In this document: piece after piece, positions 5,491 to 64,000 of the stretch
Layout of the letters: every line of letters begins with the position of its first letter
Position numbering within the stretch: the stretch's first letter is position 1
Source of the DNA: Obrimoposthia wandeli
Taxonomy: Eukaryota
NCBI GenBank assembly: GCA_977020255.1
Contig: CDROCS010001869.1
Coordinates: forward strand, 186,001-250,000
Reading direction: 5' to 3'
DNA length: 64,000 bases
Notes under the pieces: model-generated
Databases searched by the model: none
What the model was told of the DNA's origin: nothing
What the model saw: the letters and a program-made list of their open reading frames with translations, nothing else
Made by a program: the position numbers and the translations under genes

Positions 5491-8400
5491 GTTATATGAA
5501 AACACTGAGGGTTGGCCAGCAAAAAAAGCAAATAAGAGTTTAAAACGCCTGAACATTTTAATTCCCCTTTGTCGGGGTCTAATTTTTAAAAAGTTTCATT
5601 TTTAAAAATTTATGTTAATCTCAATTAAAAATACATTTATTACCAATTTTAAAGAATTTTAAAATGAGTTAAAAGCTCTTTTTTTTAAAAATTGATTTTC
5701 AGTTAAACCTTAAACAATATTTGGGGTCATTTGTTAAAAATATTTTAAACTAAATATGATTATTAAAATATAATATATTATAAATTGATTTTTTTGTAGT
5801 ATTTAGTCAAATATGTTACAATTCATTATATTTTTACATAATTTTTTAAAAGTTCATTTCTTCTACGTTATTATTTGACACTATTTTTAATGGTCTTGGC
5901 TCTCACTATCTGATTCAGTTATGAATCGAAGAATTTCTATCATTAATTCAGACAATTTTATTTATGGGTGTGGATATTATTACAGCTTAGCGGTAGATTG
6001 GCGTTGACAAATTTGTATGCAACGACAAAAATGTAATAACTAAGTTATATTAAATAATTTTTTATTTTTTAGGAAAACATTTTTGATAAAAAATTTGTTT
6101 AAATTAAATATTTTTGTAAAATAGCATTTTAAATATTTTAAAAGAATTTCAAATTACGGAAAGGAAAATTGAATTCTAACAAGCTGCTCTACTTGATTCC
6201 TGTCAATCCATGTTGTACAAAAATATGATTTTGTAAAGAAATAAAATGATAAAAAATAGCTTGCAATAAATTATATTTTATCTAATTGATCTTATTTTTC
6301 TTAATTTCAGAGTTGATTAAACATCTCTAAAAAAATTAAATACAAATTTAATACAATTCAATCTGAATGTCTAGTAATCCATTTTTGGTAAGCTAAACTT
6401 GATTAGAAATTATTTTCAATCTTGCTAAAAAATTAACGTTTTAATTATTTTTAATTATAACCTAATGCCGTCGATTACAAAGCTGATAAACCAGAGTTGT
6501 ACTGAAATACATCGAGATATGAGTCAAAAGGTCAAGACAGTCTTCAGTAGCAAGGTAGGTGTGCAAGAAAGTGTTACTCCAATAACAACAGATTAAAATA
6601 AATTATCACAACAATCCATGTGCTTTGAGACGATTTTGTCATTATGCAAAAGATGATGACGATCTTTATGAGATTCAGTCTGCAATTAAAATCGATTACT
6701 CAAAAAAATTACTGGAAAAATAATTTTTAGATTTTTAAAAAAAATATTTAAAGGTTTTAGACCCTTGAAGGTCTGACCAAACTCAGACCAAGCCTATTAT
6801 ATATAACTTTGAAAAGTAGAAAAATAATGTTTTGAAGGCTTTAAATCCTTGAAGGTTAACTTTGAAAGAATCACCTCAAAGGACAATCTCAAAGAACTAC
6901 CTTTAAGAGTGACTTGACCTCAAGGTGACCTTAGCGTCAGGATGTCACAGATGAGTCATCGATAAGTTATCGATGAGTAATATATTTTTACCACAAAGAC
7001 ATTACTTATCCGGGGAGGGGTCTTTGTGTCAGAAGTCACGCATCCACCTATTCTGCTGTAGTCAACTCGGTCTTCGGGATCGTACCTTTTCGTTTCCATT
7101 AAAACAATTTATTTAAAAAACAAAATTAGGTAAGTTATTGCCCATACACTTTAGGCAACAGCTTTAGCAAATAGGAAACCTAGCAAAGTTGCAACTATTA
7201 AGCACCAATAAATCCTCCTTTTTGACGTAATACTATTTTTCTTCGACCAGAACCACTTTTTGTATTAACAATATCAAGTAATACTTTCTTGTGTTTAGTA
7301 ACTTTCAGTTTATGTTTTCCGAGATTGACTTTTCCTTTAACTATATTAAATAGAATTTCTATCAATTTATCAATAACAAAAGGTGAAAATGATTTAAGAA
7401 TTTGAGTTTTATGATAACTATGAGCCTATGAAAGCGTTTGAAAGTAAGGAAAAACGTTTTTCATTAATATTTAAATTGAAAATACATATATTGTTTATAG
7501 TCGTTTAAGAAAATGGGTTAGAACCTCCCTTTTGTTTTCCTTTTTTTATCAATTTATTGCAATTCTTTGTCTTTTTAACACACCATATTGACTTTTAATT
7601 TTTTTTTCCTATTTTATGTTTTTTAACATTCAATCAGCATTTTGCATTCTTCGTAAACACTGTTTTTATTAATTTCTTTACTTGTTTAGCTATAATATCA
7701 TCATCAGGTTTTCAATTAATATTAACATAATTAGGCATATCAACTTTTATAAATTCATTTTTAATAAAAATGTAACTTTGTTTGTGTTTAAATACCATAC
7801 AGTTGTCAAAAATATCAGTTCTTATTCTCAATTCATCAGGAAATGACTGTGTAAAATCAAGAAACAAGTAATAACGAGGATTTTTATTTGAATCTTGAAA
7901 TGAATTTATCAAATATTGCCTGTTATGAGGAAATGCTTGACGTGAAATATAGTCAATAACAGTTTGATCATGCGGATTCTTAAAAAACAAGTAATATACG
8001 TTAAATTACCGCCTTGATAAAATAGGTTTTGACTATTGAAAATTACAGTAACATAGTTGTGTCTATTCATTGAATCTTGTAAAGTCACTGATGTAGTTAT
8101 AATTGAAATTGAGTCAAAAGAAATAAAAGAAAGTGGTATTTTAATAGGTATTATTCAAGGTGAGAACAAGATATTTTACCACAAGCAAAACATATGTTTG
8201 ATGCACATTAAAAGTTATTTTTACTGCTATTACTTAAATTAATTCACTTCACAGACTTACCATCAAAATTGCATGACATAAAATTGTTCAGATGTTTCTG
8301 TTACGAATTCCGATAGTATCTAAGTTTGACAGTAGTTCATGGCAACTTTTCTTCTATCCTTGAAACATTTCCAGACAGAATTGAAAATTACATATACATT

Positions 8401-38400: not shown

Positions 38401-41400
38401 TCCATGGCGCTAACAATTTAACTACATTTACACATAATAAATTTTTACTTAAAAAACATGATTTTCATTTTCTTATATACAAAAATAAAAGAGGTTTTAT
38501 GCTTATGTTTATAAATACGTATGTGGTTGTTTTAGGAAATATATTTGAAAAAAATATGAAACTTAAATTTGTATTCAAACAGAGAAATGAAATTTCCATG
38601 ATTTTTACTGTATACTTTATAAATAATTTCTTATAACAAATAAATCTAAAAATGAAATGAATTTTATTACGATAATTTATCGAAAACTTGAAATTCTTTT
38701 CGATTGGTATAATCTTTACAATCAATAACGTTCTTGTCAATAAAGTAAATCTATAAATAAATCTATTAAAATTAAATTAAATCAAAATTTCAACTTACCC
38801 AAAAATCACTTACAAGGGCTGCCAATAATTAATAAACAGCCTCATTTATATTGAACATAATGTAAAATAAGAGAAAAAACTTACGTGAATAAAATGTTTG
38901 TTGCTAAACTTCTGCAACGTAGTATATTTTAAAATATAAATTATTTAATGTTATTTTAGATTTAAATTTTTTTTTTAAGTTTATTTTTATTTAAAATATT
39001 TATTTTTAGATAAAACACTTTACATAATTTAAATCCATATAACTTTTAGATTTTAAAAGTGTAAATAGTTTTTAAAAATTATTTTTTAGTTTATTGTTTT
39101 ATGTAATTTAATATGAACACAAAAAATATTTTCTTAATTTATAAATTTGTTGAAAGATTTTATTGAAATTAATATTTACAGTCAATATAAATGTAACTTT
39201 TATAAAAAGTAACAAACAAAGTCGTTTAAATTCATCAAATTTATTGATAAACTTGATGATACAACCATAAAGGACATAAAGAAGCACAATTAATAGTTAA
39301 TAGATTTTGTATACGAGTTTTATTATAGAATACATGGTGTTTCTCTTGAGTTTCCACATGTCTGATGAGTGCCGATGGATAATAAATTGCTAGAGGGTCG
39401 AATATGTGTACACTATCACGTCTCACGAATAACGCAATCCAGTGTTCACCAGGTAAGTTACTCGTATGAGTATTTACAACATATCCCTCGGGTTTTAGAA
39501 TCGGTATTTTGTCTATAGGAAACACTCCTTTCAATTTCTGTTCCAGTAATTCAATTCTCACAGTTTTAACCTGTTTAGTACTAAATTAATAAGTTAAATA
39601 TTAATATACACTTAATTCATTCTAAAATTGCACGTTTGGCCTTAGTTACTTGAATTTCAGTATCGAAAACTCCGTAAATTAAAATGTTTGACGGATGTTC
39701 TAATTCCATGAAAAACTTTATGTCAAGTCTTAGATTACCTTGTCTCGGTAATTGATATTGATGTGGAATGAAATGTGAAAAATGGATAACGTTCCTTAAA
39801 ATTTGTCATAATTAAATAAACTCATCAGGTAATTTAAATTAACTGACTTTAACTCAAATTGTCAACTAATTTCTGACTAATTAAAATTAATATAAATTAT
39901 GTGGTAATTTATATTCTATATAGATTTTAAATTACCACCTCATTAAAACAAATTTGAATTTAATAATGTACAATTTTCCCGTCTATATGAACAAACCGAA
40001 TTTTGATTTTCCAAACCGACATTATGAGCCATCAATACTGATGGTTCAACTCTCACACGTCTAACTTTCATTTTAGCATCTAGAAATTTATATTTTACGA
40101 TGAGTAGCACCTCTTTTTAGAGACAAGTTTGAATTTGCAATAATTCATTTTATATCAACATTTATACATGTTCTTCAAGAAAATCTGATCAAATTAAACC
40201 GATAAACTCAAATTCTTGAGATTTTGTAATCCATCCTTTCTGTACATCACCATCGGCGTCTTAACCAATTGTATATAATAAAAAACTTTTTTATCTTTGT
40301 TATAATTAAGCATACATTCAATCAAAGCCTTGTGAGCATAATAACCATTTCCTCTTTCAATACGAGTATTATTCAAGGGAATTTGCACATCTTTAAAAAG
40401 TGTATGGAAAAAAAATTTAAAGATTCGAATTTATCTTCTTCGTCCAAGTCAATATAATTGTTAGTTCCATTATGTTTTAAAACTTTAATTTTCAAAAATA
40501 ATAGAAAATCATTCAAATCTAAATATTCCGTTTCACTTGATTATATAGTAAACTCGATAGTATTGATATTACTACTTTAATATTATTCACATGGTAAATT
40601 TTCTCAAAATATCCATTTTCTATAGCAATTTGAGGTAGTGGACAACACAGTTCAGATTTTGCACGTGTCATTTCTTACTCAAATATAATTTTTATTTTCT
40701 GCGTTTGTTTGTACTACCACTTCCTTTTTGTTCCTCTTTAATTTGACCTGTAGTTATGGTGGTCGTTTTCGACTTTCCTTTATTGCAGTTATTAGTTAAG
40801 TAGCAGCTTTTGTTGCTTCAGGTAACAAATCTAGACCCTCACTAATCGCATTTGATTTCAATTGACTCAAAATTAGTTTATCATTCACCAATACATTTGT
40901 AAGTGTTTTTGCATCAATTCGTCCTAAACATGATAGTATAGGAAAAGCGATTCGCTCCAACTAATTTGATGAATGCTTGGTCGTGTATGATGGTTGGTTT
41001 GGTGGATGGTTTTGAGTTAATGTTGAAGTTGTATTGCTGTGTGTTGTGTTTAAAAATTATTTGTGCTGGTGACAGGTTGTCTTCTTTGTGTAGAGTGTTT
41101 CTGATTCCTGGTAGTGTTTTATGTAGGGTGTCTACACAATTGTTATTGCTGTTTGAGAAAGCGAGGCTTTCTATTTTTCTCCTGTATAGGCGCTCAGTTT
41201 TGCCGTTGGATTGAGCATTTTGTGCGGTTGTTGTGCTTTCTTTAATGCTATATTGTTGGCACATGGTATTTTAAAATTTTGAACTCGAATTGGCGTCCTC
41301 TATCTGATATTATCTTTGCCGGATATCTGTAGTCTGTGAACGATTCTCTTTGTAATGTATGAGTGATTGTGTTAATGTCAAATGCGTGTATGGGTACGGC

Positions 41401-44400
41401 ATCTAGCCAGTTGGTATGATTGTAAATTATGGTCATTAGGTATTTGTCCTTCTGGTTGGTTGGTAGTGGACCTACATTGTTGATATGTATTGTTTGGAAT
41501 GGATGTTTTGCTTTAATGTGGAGTTGTTTGATTTGTGTGTGTTTTTGTGTTTTGTTTAGATTACATTGTTTGCATTGTTTGATGAATGTTTGGATATGTT
41601 TTCGCATGCACGGTCAAACGTAATTTTGTTTGATTATATCGAATGTACCATTGTTACCAGAGTGGTGATTGTTGTGATGATGTTCTATACATTTTCTTAG
41701 TGTATTGGTAGAATTAATATTTTGATTTCGGGATTGGTTGTGTAGTACCATATTTAATTTTGTTTTGTTAATTTGAAATTATTGTGTCTGAACAGTTTCC
41801 TGTTGTTTGTGTTTGGTTTCTTCCTCATTGAATGGAGGATCGAATGTTATGGTGTTGGTATGTTTAATTCGTGATTGAGTGTCTGCGAATATGTATGCGT
41901 TGCCCGAGGTGTGTTTGATTGTGCAGTTAAATTGTGAGATGTAATTTATTTGTCTGATTTGGCGGGGTGAGGGTGTTTTCATGGTGATGATGTGTAGACG
42001 CGGTTTGTGATCTGTGTATAATGTGAATGTGTTGCCTTCTAAGTATGTCTCGAAATGTTTGATGGCGTCATATATAGCTAATTGTTCCTGTCAAAAGTAG
42101 AATATTTTATTTAGTGTTTTTTATTTTTTTTTAGAAGAATGCGTTGATGTGGGAGAGGATTTTGTTAATTGGTTTAGTACTGCTCTTATGGCATGATTCG
42201 ATGTATCTGTGGTGAGAGATAGTGGAGCGTTTGGAATTAGAAAGTGTAATGTGTTGAGTCTGTAATTGCTTGTTTTGCTGTTTTGAAGGGAGTTATATCG
42301 GTGTTTGTAAATGTGATTTTTGGTTGCTTGGGTTCGTTTTTTTTATCAATTCGGATAGAGGTGCTAGTATTTCTGCACACTTTAAAGTTCCCCATACCTA
42401 AAACGCTTCTGATTTCTTTGACTGTGATTGGTGTTGGCATATTGTTTATGGTTGTTGGTTTGGTTTGTAAAGATCTTATTTGATTGTGCGATATGTAGCT
42501 AGGAATTCTATGTGTGTTTGATAGTATAGGCATTTTTTGTTGTTGATTTAGAGATTGTGGTTGTCGAGTATGTTTTTGACGTGTTTTATATCTTTGGTGG
42601 GTTCTGCGTGATTGTTGCTTCCTATTAATATGTCGCCAATATATGTTACTATGTTATTTATTTTGTTGAATAGTTGATCCATAAAACGGTGGAAGGTTGC
42701 CACTGAGCTTTTAGACCAAAATAAATTTTAATATATTCGAAAAGGCCAAAAGTCGTGATTATTGCGTTTTTGTTGATATCTTCTATGTGCATATGAATGT
42801 TGTGATAGGCGGATAACAGATCAATTTTACTGAAGTAATCCTTTGGTGATATCTCTTATGAGTGGATGTGGGTAAGAGTCTGGTGTTGTTATTGCGTTTA
42901 ACATTATATAGTATCTGCAACATCTCCATGTTTTTTGTTGTTGAATTATGAGAGCTGATGACCATGGTGAGTTGGTTTTTTGTATAATGTCTTGTTTTTC
43001 TAACTCAGTGAATGTTTGTTTTGCGACTGCTAATTTTTTTATTGGGAGTTGTCTTACTTTGGTGTGACATGGTCTCCCATTTGTTATGATTTCGTGTGTA
43101 GTTGTGTTTTTGTCTATGTGTGCAATGTTGGTTTGATAGTTTGTTTGATTGTTCGGGAATATAAGGGTTTTATTTTTGCAACCTATTAGTATGTTGTAGT
43201 GTACTAGAAATCGAAACCTTGTATTGCTTGTTGGACTTTGACGACTGTGAAAATCCATTTGAATGGTTTTTTGTTTATTGTTATTACTATCTGATATACT
43301 GCATGATTTTTAAGTTTAATCATATTTTTAAAAAGTTTATAAGCATTTTATTAATACATACAACAATAATGAATTAAAAATGGACACAGAAAAAGCTATA
43401 TACATCATGTTTGAACGATAAAGCTGAATGGATTTTTCAAAATCAATTTTACATTTAAGATCTTTATGGACAAGTGCTTAAACAATTTTCCTAACATGAT
43501 CACGACTATCTTCATTAAAGCTAGTAAAGTATTGAACTCCATTTATTGTTCCACTTATAATTTGCTCAACCGTATCATCAACTAATTTATAGTGTTTATC
43601 CATTTTTATATATTATCAAATTTTAATTGTTTATACTATGAAATTGTACATTTTTTACTCTCCGTTCGATCACACGTCGACATACTGGACATGAACGCAA
43701 CATTCTGGAACATGATATACATGTATTAACATGTTCGCAAGGAAGAAATACTACTTCAATATTAGTATTTAAACATACTACACATTCAGATTAATTTAAA
43801 AAGTATGAAAGTATATTTATATATTGTTTTTCAAGTTTTATTTCTAAATAAGATAAATCATAATTCATTTCATAAGTTGTTTTATATTCTACATATCGCA
43901 TCATTTGATATTTTAAAACATAATTTATTCTATCTTTAGTGAAAAACTGTTTCAAATATTTGATTTATATCCATCAACATATCAGATTTCTCTATAGTTA
44001 AAGGATATTCAATAATACAATCTGTTTCGATTTTCAACATCATCACCATCATTAACTAAAACGTCATTAACAGTCATATAATGAATTATATAATTAACAA
44101 GCAATTTCAAAAATTAAATTTCATGTATTTGTTCATAAGAAACTTTCAAGAAAAACACATTAGACTCTATTGACAATGATAATAAAAATCTTTAATACCA
44201 TGAATAAACACCTTTACACTAGCAAATACATTAACACATATGTGATCAACCTTTACAATTCTGAATGCAGGACATAATTCAATTTCAAATATACAATTTC
44301 TTCTTTCCATGTTCACCGATATTTTATACAAATTAACCTTCTTGTTGATATTTACTAAGATACTTAGAGTATGAATATGTTCAATTTCTATATTTTTTAC

Positions 44401-47265
44401 ATGTTAAATTGGTTGTTTGCAATCCATAATCCTACATGAACCTATAATAATAATAATAATAATAATTGTAATACCTGTTGGAAATATAACTATAGTATAT
44501 TCCCTTAACTTTTCAACATATTGTATAGGTTTCTTTGATCGAAAGAGTAAGTGACTAACACTTCCCTTAACTTTACCTTTATAATTTATATTGCTTATTT
44601 TCATTTCATGTAATAATAGTGTTGATGATGTCACAGACTTATATAGTTTTGTATTATCCAATGATAATCAATAACCAATCAGATTCAAGTAGTCAACTAT
44701 AACTAACAAAATATTTAAGTTTACTGTCATTATTATTTTTCATGTTCAATTTACAAAAACAAATTTTGAAGAGCGACGATAGAAAGAAGAATGGAATTTT
44801 AAATAATCAGCGATTAAAACTCAAAAGCACAATCCATATAGATTCTGATGATACAGAATCAGAAGATATTTTTAAGTGAAAATTTCATCATGATGCCCGT
44901 AATCTATGGATTTTACTACAATGTTATGCTAACAAAATTCAAAATTGATTACGTAATATCAAGATTTCACAGTACGGTTATAAATCATCTTAATACTTTT
45001 TCAAAGGTATGAAATTGGATATAATGTTTTTTTAAATTTAGTGTTTTCATTATAGCTAATGAAAATTCATTCCCGGAATCTATGAATTCTATGAAGAAGA
45101 GATTCCCAAATGCAAAAATTGGACATTATTTATTCAAATACAAGTTCAAAGTTGATAAGCTCGGAAAAACCGAAGCCTATATCGAAAATTACAGAAGGAA
45201 ACGTGAAAGTTTAATAAATATTGACTGTCTTTATTATCTTTTACTATAAACAAAAGGATTTTTAAATATTCCTTGTCACCGGTGCTGCCCGGTCATGCAG
45301 GGCCTTTCTCTTAGGAGGCTCCGAAAGGGAGAATTTGGTAATTTTTTAAATCTATAAGTTTCAAATACACGTAAAACACTTTAAAACATATAAAAAATGC
45401 AAAATTTAAAATTTGTAACATCAAAGCTAAAATTCTTGTATAAACCGCGAAATTTAAAAATTCAGTCTCTAAATCGTGCATTCGGGAATTTGCAGTAAAA
45501 TGTCATTTTGGAATCATTTAGTGTGGTTTGAGTGATTTTTGTGTGTTTTTGAGGAATTTGTAGTAGAATAGAGTGTTGGAACGGGAATGATGGAATTAAG
45601 AGCACAGCGTACCACCCCGGAGGCCTTTGTTCCGAAATTCCCGTACCGACACTATGCATCAATTTCTTTTAAATATCAAAATCGAGTGGCATGAAATGTA
45701 GATTAGGCCGTAACAATGGATATTAAGTAAATGGATTTTGTTTTGAATACTTTCCAATCAGTCTTTAAAAATTGATTCAATGAAACAACTTTGATTGTTA
45801 TATTTATCACACTGTCGGTGTACTGATATTGTCATTTGTGAATAAAATAAGATAATAGATATTCAATGGGAAATGGCATAAATTAAATTAAAATATGTTT
45901 TGTTTAAATTGTAAGTTGCGGTTAAATTTTGATAATTTCTCTCGCTTCTTTTCTAGCGACTCAATGGTGAATTTTTTTCATAGAATTTTCAAGTAATTAT
46001 AAGGAATATATAATTCTATTCAATTTCTAAACTCGCCAGAAATTATTTTTCTACTTTATAATTATAGACACATCAATTTATTGATTGCACTTTTAATTTT
46101 CGTGACTCAGCTTTTTATTTTGAATGTTTTAGTTTCAATTAGAAATATTTCATCATCAGCAGGCTAAATTAACGAAAATTTTTGTTGTTATTTTTGAAAC
46201 AAATTCTTAATTATTCATTATAATCGTGTCATTGTACTTTACTTTCTTTTACATTAAAATAACATTTAAGTTTGTTCAAATATCTAAATTTAAGTATCAA
46301 ATAATATTGTACTTTTAAAAAGTTTCTATTATAATTTAAATTTGCAAATGTTCTGTTTTATAACTATGAAGTCCTTAGAGATAATGAATAACAACACAAA
46401 ATTAAAGTGATTTTAATATATTTCCCATTGATCCACTCATTTACAATATTTGTGCTGGGATTAACGTACTTTGAACCAATGAATGTGATGGGCCAATCAA
46501 TTGATGAACACTATTTAGCTACTATTTTTGTTACAAATTGTTTCGTTATTTAAGGCTATTCAACATAAGCACAGTTTAAGATTTGATGGATGGTATAAAT
46601 AAGTCAAATCATGTAATATGTCATGCGTAATTAAAAGAAAATGAATAGATAAAAACGGTAGGTACATTGCACATACATATCAAATTGATTTTTATTCTCT
46701 CATAGTTAGTTTGAATGCATATAATACAAAGAAATTAAATTTATTCATGCATTTTCGGATATAACTTCACATAAGTTATTTTGTCATTTTAGGGTTGGAA
46801 TTTACTGAATTTGCAATTTGAGTTGTGGAAGTTGAAAATCTCAAATTTCAAATAAAACTAAAATTCGTAGAAATAATAAGAACAATTATGCTAGAAAAGG
46901 AAATCCACTATGTACAAATTTGGTTGTATACATACATTATACAGGGAAAAAACTGGGAAATGTTCTGTAAAAGAAAACTTCACACAATTATTATTGTTCG
47001 TAAAATTTATCTTGGAATTTTATTGTTTTTTTATTTTAGAATCTAAATGTAATCTCACTCAGTTCTTTATGAATTAAATCATATTCCTTAAGTCCATACC
47101 CTGTCGTTACACTATGTTTACGTTTTAGCTAAAGAAAAGTTTCCAGTTGAAGACTACGCCGTCAGTCAACCAACTTTGGAGCAGGTATACTTCGATTTTG
47201 CAAAATTCCAGACCAAGGATGACCTCAAATATGACGTCGAAATCAACTGGAAATACAAGTCCTGA
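5092..47265 (+). CDS. ABCA: ABCA-subfamily ABC transporter, C-terminal half (16 exons; 5' half lies upstream of the window)
   Basis: All 16 exons have AG/GT boundaries and compatible phases. Spliced protein shows TM7-12, Walker [11 protein letters not shown]-loop CPQ, signature LSGGCKRR, Walker B/D-loop [32 protein letters not shown] and the ABCA C-terminal [24 protein letters not shown] at 47373. Confidence 0.95.
7151..7464 (-). pseudogene. Polinton basic core-type protein (QKGGF motif)
   Basis: [87 protein letters not shown], one nonsense codon and a frameshift. Resembles the small basic Polinton protein encoded downstream of the ATPase. Confidence 0.7.
7510..7745 (-). pseudogene. Second, more decayed QKGG-motif basic protein
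   Basis: Lys-rich frameshifted frame ending [10 protein letters not shown], between the ATPase and the clearer paralog. Confidence 0.35.
7712..8078 (-). pseudogene. Polinton packaging ATPase (FtsK/A32-like), C-terminal fragment
   Basis: [18 protein letters not shown] and [20 protein letters not shown]...[25 protein letters not shown] match Polinton ATPase motifs (H+NxSVIxxxQNLF; LFKNPRD; PYGYLxxD; RLRTxIF). Confidence 0.85.
8300..10070 (-). mobile_element. Degraded pogo/Tigger-like DNA transposon remnant
   Basis: TA-CAGTGCACTCTGCGTTAT terminus at 10070 next to a (TA)n run; weak [16 protein letters not shown]-terminus near 9700; left boundary uncertain. Confidence 0.35.
10578..10720 (+). CDS. 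ABCA: ABCA exon (extracellular domain 2)
   Basis: TTTTCAG|AT...TGG|GTAAGT; phase 1-0, open frame. Confidence 0.85.
12456..12752 (+). CDS. ABCA: ABCA exon (ECD2 and TM8, ends VVRDRM)
   Basis: TTCCAG|AAC...ATG|GTGGGC; 99 codons; VRDR matches ABCA V(K/R)ER. Confidence 0.9.
13183..13314 (+). CDS. ABCA: ABCA exon ([24 protein letters not shown]9)
   Basis: TTTAG|ACA...GAT|GTAAGT; 44 codons; matches the AKHLQxxxG...YW motif. Confidence 0.9.
15593..15742 (+). CDS. ABCA: ABCA exon (TM10 region)
   Basis: TTTCAG|AAT...ATG|GTAAGC; 50 hydrophobic codons, YCVSFAF resembles ABCA YxxSFxF. Confidence 0.85.
17091..17216 (+). CDS. ABCA: ABCA exon (TM11 region)
   Basis: TTTAG|GTT...TTT|GTGAGT; 42 codons, phase 0-0. 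Confidence 0.8.
17667..17845. mobile_element. MITE, Tc1/mariner-pogo type
   Basis: 23-bp TIRs CAGTAATTATTCACCT(A/G)TAAGGG with one mismatch, TA on both flanks, internal CACCTATAAGGG repeats. Confidence 0.9.
18632..18739 (+). CDS. ABCA: ABCA exon (loop before TM12)
   Basis: TTACAG|AGG...GTA|GTATGT; 36 codons, phase 0-0. Confidence 0.7.
20202..20358 (+). CDS. ABCA: ABCA exon (TM12 and linker)
   Basis: TTTAG|CAC...GAAG|GTACGA; phase 0-1, GC-rich open frame. Confidence 0.8.
20880..21260 (-). mobile_element. Chapaev3-like (CMC) transposase remnant
   Basis: LHVFVPI*...HDDCYFC and [15 protein letters not shown] match the FxVPMxWRE..HxxDCYFC / YPNxPSAIRPVPH motifs. Confidence 0.6.
22732..22808 (+). 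CDS. ABCA: ABCA exon (pre-NBD2 linker)
   Basis: TTCAG|AT...GAT|GTAAGC; phase 1-0, only one open frame. Confidence 0.75.
23937..24152 (+). CDS. ABCA: ABCA exon (NBD2 Walker A)
   Basis: [16 protein letters not shown]; TTAG|GTG...AAG|GTAGAC. Confidence 0.95.
25574..25759 (+). mobile_element. Mariner transposase N-terminal HTH remnant
   Basis: [47 protein letters not shown] matches the mariner HTH consensus. Confidence 0.85.
26200..26384 (+). CDS. ABCA: ABCA exon (NBD2 Q-loop)
   Basis: [20 protein letters not shown]; CCCAG|GTT...AC|GTGAGT. Confidence 0.95.
27072..27147 (+). CDS. ABCA: ABCA exon (ABC signature LSGGCKRR)
   Basis: TTCCAG|G...CGG|GTGAGA; phase 2-0. Confidence 0.95.
29770..30330 (-). 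mobile_element. Degraded DNA-transposon-like coding remnant, family unresolved
   Basis: GC-elevated frameshifted frames with a Cys/His-rich end ([19 protein letters not shown]), reminiscent of piggyBac-type C-terminal domains. Confidence 0.3.
30896..30990 (+). CDS. ABCA: ABCA exon (Walker B and D-loop)
   Basis: [31 protein letters not shown]; TGCAG|TTA...TG|GTAAGG. Confidence 0.95.
33645..33720 (+). mobile_element. Tigger/pogo-type TIR remnant
   Basis: TA-CAGTGAAACCTCGATTATCGGATACC; partner end not found. Confidence 0.5.
34190..34620 (-). mobile_element. CR1/L2-like LINE 3' fragment
   Basis: EFFSERI...GCFKNRLDQ resembles the CR1 ORF2 C-terminus FFSxRV...FKxRLD, followed by a GC-richer 3' UTR. 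Confidence 0.5.
35201..35320 (+). CDS. ABCA: ABCA exon (H-loop region, His replaced by Gln)
   Basis: [22 protein letters not shown]; TGCAG|G...AT|GTGAGT. Confidence 0.95.
35500..35945 (+). mobile_element. Tc1/mariner transposase C-terminal remnant
   Basis: [23 protein letters not shown]...[11 protein letters not shown] matches DFFLWGxLK...GxHFEHL. Confidence 0.8.
37797..38038 (+). CDS. ABCA: ABCA exon (regulatory R2 domain)
   Basis: [15 protein letters not shown]; TTTCAG|G...CAG|GTGAGC. Confidence 0.95.
39241..39620 (-). pseudogene. Polinton adenain-type cysteine protease with a 35-nt intron (39615-39581) whose donor reads TTAAGT
   Basis: Spliced [25 protein letters not shown]...[16 protein letters not shown]...IFDPL...[13 protein letters not shown] keeps catalytic H, D, Q and C; exon 2 is open. 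Confidence 0.9.
39617..40671 (-). pseudogene. Polinton major capsid protein, frameshifted
   Basis: [30 protein letters not shown] and GNLRLDIKF...[15 protein letters not shown] align with the intact capsid at 62773-63999; the TGA stop overlaps the protease ATG. Confidence 0.9.
40690..40910 (-). pseudogene. 3' part of a small gene upstream of the capsid (amphipathic/basic)
   Basis: [31 protein letters not shown] then a Lys/Arg-rich tail; identity rests mainly on position. Confidence 0.3.
40914..43260 (-). mobile_element. Ty3/Gypsy pol remnant (RT, RNase H, integrase), no LTRs seen
   Basis: [79 protein letters not shown]. Confidence 0.9.
43320..43603 (-). pseudogene. Unknown small ORF with one nonsense codon (probably Polinton accessory)
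   Basis: [57 protein letters not shown]...; no recognisable family. Confidence 0.35.
43623..43935 (-). pseudogene. RING-finger (IAP/Mdm2-like C3HC4) protein
   Basis: [40 protein letters not shown]; one in-frame stop just upstream of the RING; missed by the ORF track because there is no Met. Confidence 0.85.
44167..44604 (-). pseudogene. TATA-binding-protein-like gene with a 33-nt intron (44474-44442) and one nonsense codon
   Basis: Spliced: ...[19 protein letters not shown]...[13 protein letters not shown]...[15 protein letters not shown], matching the two TBP repeats (IFxSGKxVxTGAK; YEPELFPGL). Confidence 0.7.
44880..45170 (+). mobile_element. Possible MULE transposase remnant
   Basis: MMPVIYGF and [12 protein letters not shown] resemble MULE PxVYALL and AxKxxFPxAxIxGC. 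Confidence 0.35.
47129..47265 (+). CDS. ABCA: ABCA terminal exon with stop codon
   Basis: TTTTAG|CT; [25 protein letters not shown]...KS*. Confidence 0.95.
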
Positions 47266-49226: not shown

Positions 49227-51754
49227 TTAAGCATGGGATTTTAACGAGTTCTTTGGTCTTTCTTTTCGTTTCCGCTTACTTCTCCTAATCCAAGTGGGAT
49301 TCATCTCACTCGTCCATCTATTCCACACATGACTAATGAACTCTTGTATTCTACACCACCGATGCCTGAGTTTTCCGCTCCCTGTTGACGCTGTCTCATT
49401 CCCCAAACTTTCTTCTCTTCCACTCACCATGAAATATTTTGGTCTTAACCGTAATTCTTCATTGCTATCTGCTGACTGAAAAGTGATTGCTCGAGAGTTC
49501 ACAGCTCCTCAACTTCAACGGATACCGTCATCAGCTCTTCATCACTTAGGTCAGCATTCATCAACACCATCCCAATAGCTTTATTAGCGCTCCTGATCAA
49601 ACTTTCAAACACTCCCCCAAAATGTGGCGCGATTTGTGGGTTAAATATCCAACGAATCTCTTCTCGTTCCAATTGCTTTCTCATTCTGTAATCGCAATTC
49701 AAATTTCACTTGTTACGTTAGCTGTCCCTTGAAGGTTTGTGCCATTGTCGGAAATAATCAAATGCGGCCTATCCCGTCTTCCCATAAATCTCTTTAAAGC
49801 CCTTATAAACTCGTCCGACTCTAAATTTCAAGCCATCTCTAGAGGTACCGCCCGTGTTTGTAAGCATGTAAACAAACATAAATATCGTTGGTTTCGAACA
49901 CAATGTGGCAATAACCACTTAGTCTCATTTTCCTTTGATTTCGAAATCATCGTAAATAACCCTTGTCTATATGATCATCTATCACTCGGCTATATTCCAT
50001 CTTTAATTGAGGGTCACGTGCAAATTTCCGAATCAAACTCTCCATTCGACTTTTTATCATCTCTTTACTTTTGCGTAACTCTTCTTTCACCGGTTTCCAC
50101 GGTATCCTCACCTGATACTTGTCGCCGTCATACACAATCGTGTGTTTCGTTTTCTGGATCAGTCTTTCATATTCGATTGACATTATCGTTTCATTCATAC
50201 ATTCCTCAATAGCCCAAAACCTTTGCAGCATCTTGTTTAATTGTTCGTCTTGTGCCAGATACGTTCTTGCGAAATCTGTTGTATTTCCTCCACTACCATC
50301 TATCATTCCCATACACGTCCAACCCAGCGGTGTCAACCAAGCCACCGGATCTCCATCTCTTCCAGCAACTTCTCTAATCACTCGATGCGCTCTCATGCAA
50401 TCTGCATCTATCAAGACATCAATGTTTTGCAATTTCCGACCTCTTTTTTGGAATTGTATATTCCTGAGATGTGGCCATCTTCCTGCTATTTTATCCCACT
50501 TGTATACTGTCAAGTCGCCAGTTGCGCTATTTACGGTTAGAGCATCTAATATTAAATTTTCTTTACTATCCACACTTTTAACCTGCACTTTCATTGATGT
50601 AGCTCTTATCTCTTGCACCTTCCCTCCAACAACTTCTACTGGAACTATATATTCTGGTCTCTCTAATCTCAATGCCTTTGCTATTCAGTTGTTGGCATAA
50701 CTCGTTGTGCTAGCATCATCTAATAGTGCGTTTACCGACACTGTCTTTCTTCGATTTTTCAGAATGACAGGCACTGTTCGCAATGTTATCATTTGATCTG
50801 GCCTCTTTTTAATCTTACGCGTTACATATGTCTCCTGCATCTTTCCATTATCTTTCGAATCTCTGTGGACTAAATAATGGTGTTTTGTTCTGCAACCAGT
50901 TGCATTGCAAAGCTTCTTCATCTTACATTCGTTTGCGCGATGTCCTCTATTTAGACAATTGAAACATAATACATGCTGTCTCACTAAATGCCATCTAATT
51001 CAACGCTAAGCTCTTAAATAGCTCACATTGACTTAGATAATGTTTCTCCCCACACTTAAGACAACTAATTATCCGCTCCTGGGTTCCTCGCAATGTGTTA
51101 GTAAGATACGTAACTCTTCCTCTTTCTACTCCAGTCCTTCCGACTCCTTGTGATACATCAGCTGCCTTCTGCAAATAACCGGCCTCCTGTCGAGCCCATT
51201 TTGCTAACGTTTCCATATCTTCTTCTTCCTTACACGTATGAATGTGCCTTCCACAACTGATTTTAGATACATCCGGCATTAATTTCAACACTTTATGGAA
51301 CAACATTCCATTTTTTAATTCTTCTTCCTTCTTCATCTCTTTCAATTTGACTATTGTCGTTTCCACAAACTCTGCATACTTCTCTTACATAAAGTCACTG
51401 CTGCAACTGCAGCTGGATCTTCTGTGTAACCGCATCAAAAAGCTCCTTAAGCCGCCAATTTCCAAAGCGAATCGTCCTACGACCAAGGAGCCTGACAGTG
51501 AGATTGCCTCTCGTCGGGCCGTCCAAATCTGTCCAACAAAAAAAACTCACATAAACCACTTTCCACTATGACTATTTATACTCTTTTACAAACACACAAC
51601 CTCACACAATATGTCCATAAAAATGTCACATTCAACATATATTAACTAGTTAATGTGGGCTCTTAACTAGTCACCAACGTGCAACTCCACCCGCATAGGC
51701 GAACTACCAGCTACAATCAGGCAGTTGACAACCGGGCCACTTGACGTCAGAACA
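49227..51754 (-). mobile_element. BEL/Pao LTR retrotransposon, internally deleted and rearranged
   Basis: Gag knuckles CFNCLNRGHRANEC/CNATGCRTKHHYLVH, protease ALLDDASTTSY, LQRFWAIEE, integrase CLFTCLQTRAV, ISDNGTN, APHFGGVFESLIRS, HVWNRW; candidate 5' LTR start TGTT at 51754 with TATAAATA near 51575. Confidence 0.9.
51387..51531 (+). other. 145-bp inverted copy of the host exon at 54906-55050
   Basis: 6 substitutions in 145 nt by manual alignment. Confidence 0.95.
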
Positions 51755-61169: not shown

Positions 61170-62131
61170 TCAATAGTTTCCTCAAATGGGATGTAATTAC
61201 TGAGCATAGAGAGTGTGTCAGTAAATATACCCCTTTTTTAAATGAATTGCAGTATCATGGAATAGATTTTACTGTTAAATTAACTGCGATATCAAGATTT
61301 GAACATCTTAATAACTTGAGTATTAATGTATTCAAATATAATACTGATATCCCAGTTAATGTAACAGATGAAGAAATTTTTAAAAATCCTTTTGTAGATT
61401 TAATTTATAGGAGCAAAAATGAGGGGACTCAGGTCAACTTAATTTTGCTCGAACATAATAAAAAATTCCATTATGCTGCAATTCCCAATGCAGATGACTT
61501 GGTAGCAGTGTTATTAGGAAAACAGAGTATTTGTCTCGATCAACCGAGTTATATAGGTCAAATGGTTTTAGACATTTCTAAACTCAGAATGTATGAGCTT
61601 CAATACATAGAATTGGAGAAATACCGACAAGAATTTAATTGTGAGATCAAAATCGCGGCTGGAGACACTGGCTCTTTCTTTTTAGAATGTAGGAATGTTA
61701 GTTTAAATAATCAATTATTACCAGCAATGTTTAGGGACAACTTACTAGATACCCATAAATATCCCGCAAACCATCTTCTACACTCTATGAGTTTAAAGGA
61801 CATTATCGGGAAATTTAAGGATGAAAGCGAGGGACAGGTTTCGTATGATGATTGTATTTTCCTACGCCCTAAATGCTACAGTTTATATGCATCTAATAAT
61901 ACATGTTCAATGAGAGCAAAGGGTGTGGGAAGAAACAATCTTACACATGAGGCCTACCGGAAAGTTTATGATACTGGGTGTATTGAAAGCGTTGAGCAAA
62001 CTAGATTTATTTCAAGAGCCCATCAACTGTATTCCCATAAATCAACCAAAATCGCTTTGAGTAGTAATGACGACAAGCGCTTTTGGGTAGAAAAGAACGC
62101 TAGCCTGGCTTATGGACACTTCAGAATTTAA
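61170..62131 (+). pseudogene. polB: Protein-primed family B DNA polymerase, 5'-truncated and internally deleted
   Basis: VSKY..LQYHGIDFTVKL..ISRFEHLNNLSINVF..VNLILL..HY (N-terminal region) is fused to LVAV..DQPSYIGQMVLDISKLRMY, GDTGS, GKFKDE, LRPKCYS, RAKGV, LSSNDDKR, LAYGHF (C-terminal region). Confidence 0.92.
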
Positions 62132-62392: not shown

Positions 62393-62771
62393 CTAATCGT
62401 TTTGCAACGATAACCATAAAATACATAAATGTCCACAGTTTCTCGTCGCAGGATCCTGATATTGTATCTTGTTGTAAAATACTCTTCTTCGTCCTTTTTG
62501 AATAGTCGAAACAAGTTAGTGTGGATAATACATTGCAAGTGGATCAAATACATGTATTGTCCACTCTAACATAAATAGCTATCCAATGTTCTCCTGGTAA
62601 ATTCGAAGTATGAGTATTGATAATGTAACCTCCAGATTGAAAAAATGGAATCATATCAATAGGATAAACTCCATTGAATTTATCACCCAGGACCTTCTCT
62701 GCTGATTCTTTTACTTGTTTTGAACTAAATAAAAATTAATAAATATAAATTTAAAATATGTCTTACTCCAT
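62393..62771 (-). pseudogene. Adenain-type protease with a canonical 42-nt intron (62766-62725); one frameshift and one nonsense codon
   Basis: ATGGA|GTAAGA...TTTAG|T gives MDSKQVKESAEKVLGDKFNGVYPID...[16 protein letters not shown]; later HVFDPL and YQDPATRNCGHLC; not in the ORF track. Confidence 0.9.
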
Positions 62772-62772
62772 T

Positions 62773-63999
62773 CTATAATATGACAGTTCTGTTTTTATTG
62801 ATTTGTATTTCCGAATCAAATACTCCGTAAATAAGCACCGTAGTAGGATTTGTTAAAGCTGCATTGAACTTAATTTCTAGTCGTAAATTTCCATCCTTTG
62901 GTAGTTGGCATTGGTTTATATCAAAGTCTGGTGTCAAAACAAATGTGAAGAACGGGCAGCTGTTTTTAAAGTCAGTGAAATAAATACCATTGTTTATATT
63001 TTTATCTAGTTGACCCAAATTTCGAATAATAGATTGGGTATAAGCCAAAGCATAAGCGTTACCTTCGAAATCTGTTTTATATGTTTCACGATAATCAGTA
63101 TTTCTTGAAAGTGTCACTGAACCAACATTAAGATTGTCAAATTGAGTTGCATCTGTCGTATAATTTCCTTGAAACTTTGCAGTTTTTTGAAAAGAAATTA
63201 AAATGAATTTCGGTAATCTTACATCACCAAAAATTTGATCCTTATTAAAAGCTTGTGTACCCGTACCTAAAGAATAAGATATAAGTTTAGTTTCTCTAAT
63301 AGGATAACAAGCATTGTTTTTTTCCATTCCTATATTATGTGCCATTAAAACTGATTGCTCGGTTTTAACTCTTCGAACATACAATTTTGCATCCAAAATA
63401 TCAAGTCTAGGTTTTAGAATGTCCGTGCTTATCAAAGAAAAATTCCATTTATTACGTTTCAAACGAAGATGTACATTAACACCGGGAATTAAATATTTCG
63501 GTTGTTCAAAGAAATTCAATCTCAAAGACCCACACATTTCGTAAGCTTTAGAACCTGCAATCCATTCTTTGCGAGTTGCATCAGTTTTATCATAACCAAT
63601 GGTTGCCAAATTAGTATTTTGAGTATCAGTACTATAATTCAAAAGACTTTCAATCAAAGCTTTATGAGCATAGGAAGAAGTTTTACCTTCAATTTTGACA
63701 TTATTAAGAGTAACAATGGCATCATTAAATAAAGAATTAAATAGGTAATTTACAGGTGTTACATCGGCATTTTCATCTAAATTAGTACCATCCCGATTTA
63801 ATACTTTTATTTGAACATAAAGCAAAGTATCATTCAAATCTAAATACTCGCTATTGGAACCATTAATATTAAATTCTAAATCGGTTAAAGTGGTTCCTGA
63901 AACTGAGTTAACAAGGAATATTTCTTCAAAGGAAGCATTATCTACAACTACTTGTGGAAGCGGTTTATCAAAAATACATAATTCAGTTTTGGCGCAACT
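62773..63999 (-). CDS. Polinton/adintovirus major capsid protein (double jelly-roll), open frame, 5' end just beyond the window
   Basis: Frame is open from 63999 (SCAKTELCIFDKPLPQ...EYLDLNDT), through [14 protein letters not shown] and GNLRLEIKF, to the TAG at 62773; 408 codons plus stop in the window. Confidence 0.95.
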   Translation of the reverse strand, partial: SCAKTELCIFDKPLPQVVVDNASFEEIFLVNSVSGTTLTDLEFNINGSNSEYLDLNDTLLYVQIKVLNRDGTNLDENADVTPVNYLFNSLFNDAIVTLNNVKIEGKTSSYAHKALIESLLNYSTDTQNTNLATIGYDKTDATRKEWIAGSKAYEMCGSLRLNFFEQPKYLIPGVNVHLRLKRNKWNFSLISTDILKPRLDILDAKLYVRRVKTEQSVLMAHNIGMEKNNACYPIRETKLISYSLGTGTQAFNKDQIFGDVRLPKFILISFQKTAKFQGNYTTDATQFDNLNVGSVTLSRNTDYRETYKTDFEGNAYALAYTQSIIRNLGQLDKNINNGIYFTDFKNSCPFFTFVLTPDFDINQCQLPKDGNLRLEIKFNAALTNPTTVLIYGVFDSEIQINKNRTVIL

Positions 64000-64000
64000 C

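Follow-up and report, generated by a model that had tools for sequence, protein, structure and literature searches.

Polinton remains in the window

The 64-kb stretch analysed here (the window), part of a 1.35-Gb assembly, contains the remains of Polinton insertions, in two of which a major capsid gene is followed by a protease gene whose first five coding bases are set apart from the remainder by a short interruption (Table 1). In the family-A copy this interruption is 42 nt long, begins with GTAAGA, ends with TTTAG and has a G+C content of 9.5%, and when it is read through the third codon is an in-frame TAA; the sequence features given for this copy in a preliminary description are as stated there. 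For the family-B copy the same description holds with respect to the 35-nt length, the position, the phase and the terminal TTTAG, but the stretch opens with TT and is without the canonical donor that prevails in its family. Both window copies are decayed Polinton insertions, and because both are frameshifted further downstream in the protease they are insufficient as the sole evidence for an intron. The two LTR-retrotransposon-like pol frames in the window we take to be gypsy-like and BEL/Pao-like.

Table 1. Positions of Polinton and other features in the 64-kb window
Feature	Position	Strand	Remarks
Protease coding exon 1, family A (start codon plus two bases)	62767..62771	-	Start codon 62771-62769; one base past the capsid stop; same layout in 4,056 family-A places
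Predicted 42-nt phase-2 GT-AG micro-intron, family A	62725..62766	-	In-frame stop on read-through
Adenain-like protease exon 2, family A	62393..62724	-	Frameshifted after about 59 codons
Major capsid protein gene, continuous 408-codon frame	62773..64000	-	Start just outside the window edge
3' part of protein-primed PolB, remains, same family-A copy	61175..62128	+	
Protease coding exon 1, family B	39616..39620	-	Start codon 39620-39618, overlapped by the capsid stop
35-nt phase-2 interruption, family B	39581..39615	-	Decayed copy, donor TT; GT in 29/31 sampled family-B copies
Protease exon 2, family B	39241..39580	-	Frameshift near the 3' end
Major capsid gene, family B, broken remains	39617..40406	-	
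Decayed TBP-like gene, family-B-type element	44176..44619	-	
Predicted micro-intron in TBP-like gene, 33 nt, GT-AG, phase 1	44442..44474	-	Position common to families A, B, C and D
Third Polinton remnant (ATPase and neighbouring gene)	7198-8154	-	Within an intron of an ABCA-like host gene
Decayed LTR-retrotransposon-like pol frame	40914-43258	-	Between family-B capsid and TBP-like remains
Decayed LTR-retrotransposon-like pol frame	49947-51336	-	

The element carrying the split protease is a Polinton. Neighbouring stretches and other copies give the gene order TBP-like gene, ATPase, small gene, integrase, minor capsid, small gene, major capsid and protease, with all element genes adjoining or overlapping and PolB on either strand. 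Pfam profiles match both PolB pieces of one family-C copy (PF03175, E 3e-10 and 2e-14), the integrase (PF00665, E 2e-13), the packaging ATPase (PF04665 Pox_A32, 27.6 bits against a cut-off of 22.8) and the TBP-like gene (PF00352); no Pfam match was obtained with the protease, capsid and PolB fragments of the window itself. The inverted repeats of one family-C copy are about 450 bp long and lie 15.6 kb apart, with ends AGT...ACT and identical 6-bp flanks, an arrangement that fits the Maverick definition in the part of PMC8097293 cited here. Long inverted repeats are also present in one family-D copy, and a distant inverted match was found in 7 of the 12 stretches examined.

Language-model features place the protease at 0.97 to Atlas clusters with 14-16% Peptidase_C5 and at 0.94 to one with 62%, and its profile matches to adenain and ASFV S273R in the PDB are weak (E 0.011-0.17). 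The assignment of the major capsid gene is less firm than that of the protease: the features lie at 0.97-0.98 to clusters with 15-22% PF21738 with a recognition value of 2150, which is under the tool's mark, and the putative gene has the position and size that fit a double jelly-roll capsid and no Pfam match. A 342-355-codon frame between integrase and capsid, also with no Pfam match, is presumably the minor capsid gene, named by its position and likeness.

The family-C copy L190 (L190:2565-3566) carries a BIR (inhibitor-of-apoptosis) domain fused to half a TBP in one continuous frame, which there replaces the TBP-like gene, and non-LTR retroelement frames lie within PolB of two family-A copies (L064:1700-10000, L067:4000-6300). 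In families C and D (L084-L110) a short upstream frame begins 5-7 bases past the capsid stop, and in family C it ends at, or overlaps, the protease start, both as judged by eye.

The protease interruption within the genome and beyond it

The Polinton load of this genome is very high, with more than 22,000 first-look candidates, of which 150 were scored and 30 loci kept in each of three protein searches of the assembly, with fetched stretches added. The sampled copies are the best exon-2 matches to the three queries; six duplicate places were dropped from the 120 rows to leave 114 copies (47 of family A, 31 of B, 30 of C and 6 of D), a 1-nt shift being allowed in the scoring of three family-A copies that have an indel where exon 2 begins. 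The four families differ substantially, with exon-2 identities of 52-56% among A, B and C/D and of 75% between C and D; within a family the copies are near-identical, so that the sample represents about six independent lineages and not 114. ATG, GT and AG are each kept in 110 of the 114 copies and all three together in 102, and an uninterrupted protease start, which would have spoken against the intron proposed in the preliminary description, was found in none of the 120 rows.

The interruption is mostly 42 nt long in family A, 35-42 nt in B, 39 nt in C and 40 nt in D, and some of the lengths encountered (37, 38, 40 and 43 nt) cannot be divided by three. Its interior had been said to differ between copies in length and sequence, and this is borne out by pairwise comparison of representatives, 17 of 21 pairs aligning no better than shuffles. 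All seven representatives have an in-frame stop on read-through and YTRAY-like pentamers, which are common in AT-rich DNA, and the donors are mostly GTAAG, like those of many host introns. Exon 2 is without a Met in 30/30 family-C and 8/8 family-D rows (two of the latter being duplicates). Because of this, and because several of the lengths are not multiples of three, splicing appears to be the only simple route to the protease protein. A fusion of capsid and protease through this donor was also considered and is ruled out, the capsid stop preceding the donor in every lineage.

Genome-wide, copies with the exact motif number 4,056 for family A, 2,026 for C/D and 352 for B, at least about 6,400 in all. 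The family-A figure comprises places with a gap of 30-56 bases between the flanks, and none had a gap of 0-26; in 100 listed among these 4,056, inspected by eye, GT is present in 98 and AG in 100. Precise loss of the intron was not found among the short-gap matches in C/D (16, against 2,026 exon-2 starts) or in B (5, against 352), all of which are partial deletions or chance ATGs. Five family-B places (L213-L217) share one internal deletion of the intron in which the acceptor is gone, indicating that this broken form has itself multiplied.

Outside this genome, a metagenome scan yielded 14 loci. The same phase-2 interruption is present behind a homologous capsid gene in contigs L115 (38 nt), L120 and L121 (both 43 nt). 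In L116 and L117 the protease has an uninterrupted Met that precedes by two codons the residue with which exon 2 begins; the splice register is thereby fixed, and removal of the intron from the interrupted genes yields the frame and register of the intronless homologues L116, L117 and P0001. The more distant loci L122-L125 are likewise uninterrupted, a protease start is lacking in L118 and L119, and L126-L128 are distant or spurious. IMG/VR contributed four protease relatives only, all distant (33% identity), and no capsid relative was found there. Word-index protein searches returned one relative each and a profile search 5,922 protease relatives at E 0.001 or better; the best 33 of these, judged by eye from protein only, include four with a hydrophobic N-terminal extension (P0124, P0125, P0126 and P0132), four with a late start and 25 starting near the expected position. 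The extensions look like read-through of an AT-rich intron. The presence of such an intron would account for the wrong or truncated N-termini of 8 of these best 33 database relatives. ORF callers would truncate or mis-start the protease, in line with the earlier expectation that ORF-based annotation would truncate or miss it, and filters for an 'intact ORF' would count such elements as dead.

Trees were built without L128, L111-L114 and L126-L127, which are spurious or distant. The 52-row protease tree has a starred 19-row clade (96/83) that unites 7/7 of the rows with a DNA-verified intron, four with an inferred intron, five of unknown state and three intronless rows (L116, L117 and P0130); the 33 rows outside it carry the label intronless, which for 31 of them comes from predicted starts alone. 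The intronless L116 and L117 nest among intron-bearers in an unstarred grouping (90/88), and a clade of intron-bearers alone is not rejected by the 13-row capsid tree (p-AU 0.39). A single gain of the intron near the base of the sub-clade would be the simplest reading. The proposal that the intron is ancestral is to be narrowed: it is old, being common to four families and three metagenome contigs, but ancestral for the sub-clade only, with the intronless L116 and L117 lying in or beside that sub-clade.

The protease is not the only gene of the element with predicted introns, and those given here need not be all. In the TBP-like gene (L063:4437-5165, L206:3978-4505 and the window copy in Table 1) families A, B, C and D share the position of a phase-1 GT-AG stretch 29-39 nt long, present in seven of eight places and absent from one decayed place. 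Three introns are predicted in the family-A PolB leader, where exon lengths keep the frame in four of five copies although the length of the second exon ranges from 526 to 619 nt, and a further intron interrupts the PolB core in families C and D, family A being continuous there. Among the copies examined, the least decayed show unbroken frames for capsid, minor capsid, integrase and ATPase. Because of the further introns predicted in the TBP-like and PolB genes, this lineage would seem to consist of intron-bearing Polintons and not to be a one-off.

In L201:4600-5400 (-) and its sister copies the family-A leader introns measure 47, 74-77 and 43-51 nt, and four exons seem to encode a long N-terminal extension of the protein that is acidic and Ser/Ala-rich. 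Internal repeats have enlarged the PolB-core intron to 335 nt in one family-C copy (L191:3660-4000) and to 456 nt in another (L207:3660-4120); the intron is shorter in family D.

Host introns were predicted by aligning one myosin reference, with splicing allowed for, to 13 stretches of sequence at 12 myosin-head loci (14 contigs matched, one near-duplicate and one fragmentary locus being omitted). Of the resulting 124 introns, among which some of the long predictions are likely wrong, 30 are 36-61 nt and 15 are 36-45 nt, and many lie at positions common to paralogues. As predicted from these alignments, the Polinton protease intron falls in the ordinary small intron class of the host, and its placement in the preliminary description in a size class different from that of host introns finds no support.

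The assembly also holds many bacterial oxidase genes, and a COX1 found in several nuclear-sized contigs gives a sensible protein only when AAA is translated as Asn and ATA as Ile (table 9); a contig with such a nuclear-embedded COX1 also bears a family-C copy. Together with the divergence of this COX1, the code makes a rhabditophoran flatworm the likely host and an echinoderm a less likely one, an assignment that depends on nuclear-embedded copies in an assembly that contains the bacterial genes and also a second animal-type COX1, presumably mollusc-like, on a 27-kb contig. A search for sequencing runs that contain this DNA gave four, all of one study, and no run listed as RNA.

Proposed expression of a split protease gene

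From the comparison of sequences we consider it very probable that the protease gene of a Polinton sub-clade is interrupted by a real, spliced GT-AG micro-intron. Host RNA polymerase II would transcribe the gene in the nucleus and the host spliceosome would excise the micro-intron as an ordinary host-type microintron, joining the start codon to exon 2, so that the protease would be made from spliced RNA only, unspliced RNA giving a frame of just two codons. Selection on the protease while the element actively replicates would hold the splice sites. Two reasons may explain why the intron is kept: these sites join the start codon to the remainder of the gene, and an element that replicates as DNA, having no routine reverse-transcription step, is without a regular route to precise loss; a 5' intron may also raise expression modestly. 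That a virion-maturation gene holds a conserved intron would imply that the lineage has long been expressed through the host nucleus and spliceosome during active replication.

The same intron could also serve regulation, if capsid and protease were carried on one RNA and splicing set the timing and amount of the maturation protease by way of re-initiation. In every lineage, as judged by eye, the protease start falls somewhere from 4 bases ahead of the end of the capsid stop to 31 bases past it, and the donor follows that end by 1-36 bases; this donor distance is inside the range in which, by the 50-55-nt rule, a junction triggers no nonsense-mediated decay. Such regulation is also consistent with the stop reached by read-through in every representative and with the continuity of the capsid, minor capsid, integrase and ATPase frames. 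However, as all genes adjoin or overlap, the tight spacing may be plain compaction, the in-frame stop is an automatic consequence of a phase-2 GTAA donor, and the intronless L116 and L117 show equally tight capsid-protease spacing; we think a regulatory role unlikely. With regard to possible competition from a poly(A) site, the motifs AATAAA or ATTAAA occur near the junction in five of the seven intron-bearing representatives and in the intronless L116, at varying places and twice within capsid codons.

A wider form of this proposal makes host splicing a switch in the life cycle, in which the polymerase, TBP-like and protease genes bear introns that the capsid genes lack, and the protease intron gates output from a capsid-protease RNA. 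We offer it tentatively and doubt that it is correct. Adenovirus late genes are expressed via splicing, and the switch, if true, would amount to a miniature adenovirus-style splicing control in a group thought ancestral to adenoviruses.

Introns might also benefit the element by helping its transcripts to evade host surveillance of intronless RNA, or by aiding their export, and so have allowed it to reach thousands of copies. According to the part of PMC8770142 cited here, the repression that HUSH exerts on long intronless transgenes in human cells is counteracted by introns, and the Polinton introns share the size class and donor type of host introns in an element whose exact-motif copies number at least about 6,400. 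Yet the long frames for capsid, integrase and ATPase have no intron, and protection of this kind is in our view quite improbable.

It is highly improbable that there is no intron at all and that the AT-rich stretch is an intergenic spacer, with the protease starting at an internal Met or at a non-AUG codon. A Met is present in exon 2 at residue 26 in family A and at residue 24 in most family-B copies, but families C and D have none; moreover, ATG, GT and AG hold a fixed register while the interior between them varies in length and sequence, and the Met of intronless relatives sits exactly where splicing would place it. Spliced-leader trans-splicing, with the AG as its acceptor and the leader supplying the AUG to free the protease from a polycistronic RNA, can hardly be credited: with one base preceding the first full codon of exon 2 in every lineage an AUG-final leader, the form known from flatworms, would be out of frame, besides which the conserved upstream ATG and GT would be left unexplained. 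In its favour are the presence of an AUG in flatworm leaders, as stated in the passage of PMC9851317 cited here, and a host that is likely a flatworm.

Relation to introns in known elements

Excision of a host-type micro-intron from the protease transcript, the reading that we prefer, would set this lineage apart from the Polintons of the following accounts. In the passages cited here, intact vertebrate Mavericks/Polintons are reported without introns (PMC8097293), nematode Polintons have intronless core genes, with introns in cargo genes only (bioRxiv 10.1101/2022.07.12.499685), and endogenous viruses of this kind are stated to be intron-free, on which ground a large survey used prokaryotic gene callers (PMC10120064). 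The premise of the preliminary description, that Polinton genes are generally annotated as intronless, accords with what these three sources say of the core genes. Group I introns are known from PLVs, as described in the part of PMC12220804 cited. In the main texts of the papers examined we found no conserved spliceosomal intron in a Polinton protease, and an earlier record of introns in one or another Polinton family may exist. Polinton-associated introns are known, and the one described here is very likely a genuine and old micro-intron of host type in a core gene of an intron-bearing sub-clade. With a protease intron present or absent in close relatives, and a PolB intron present or absent between families of one genome, these elements offer a testable case of intron gain or loss in a DNA-replicating element.

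In its family assignment the protease resembles adenain (Peptidase_C5), as judged by language-model features and weak profile matches, although adenain has 204 residues against about 112 for the Polinton protease here; no micro-intron is known to split the coding sequence of adenain. The element as a whole matches animal Mavericks/Polintons (eupolintoviruses, adintoviruses), as portrayed in the accounts cited above, in having a protein-primed PolB, an rve integrase, an A32-like ATPase, putative major and minor capsid genes, an adenain-like protease behind the capsid gene, inverted repeats starting with AGT and a 6-bp target duplication. It differs in that the core genes of those elements are intronless, whereas here an intron in a core gene is common to families and samples, PolB carries further introns and a TBP-like gene is present.

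Closer parallels for the intron itself come from two other systems. The introners of dinoflagellate eupolintoviral elements, as presented in the portion of PMC12166617 cited, are likewise introns of spliceosomal type inside Polinton-like elements, and about a quarter of these introns lie in coding regions, but they are mobile, copy-specific, mostly recent and mostly inserted after integration, whereas the intron described here is fixed in thousands of copies and across lineages that are about 50% identical, with a diverged interior. The microintrons of flatworms share with it a length peak near 37 nt, consensus-like splice sites, enrichment at the 5' end and clustering, as set out in the sections of PMC6530080 cited; those are known from host genes, and here the same kind of intron would reside in a virus-like element.
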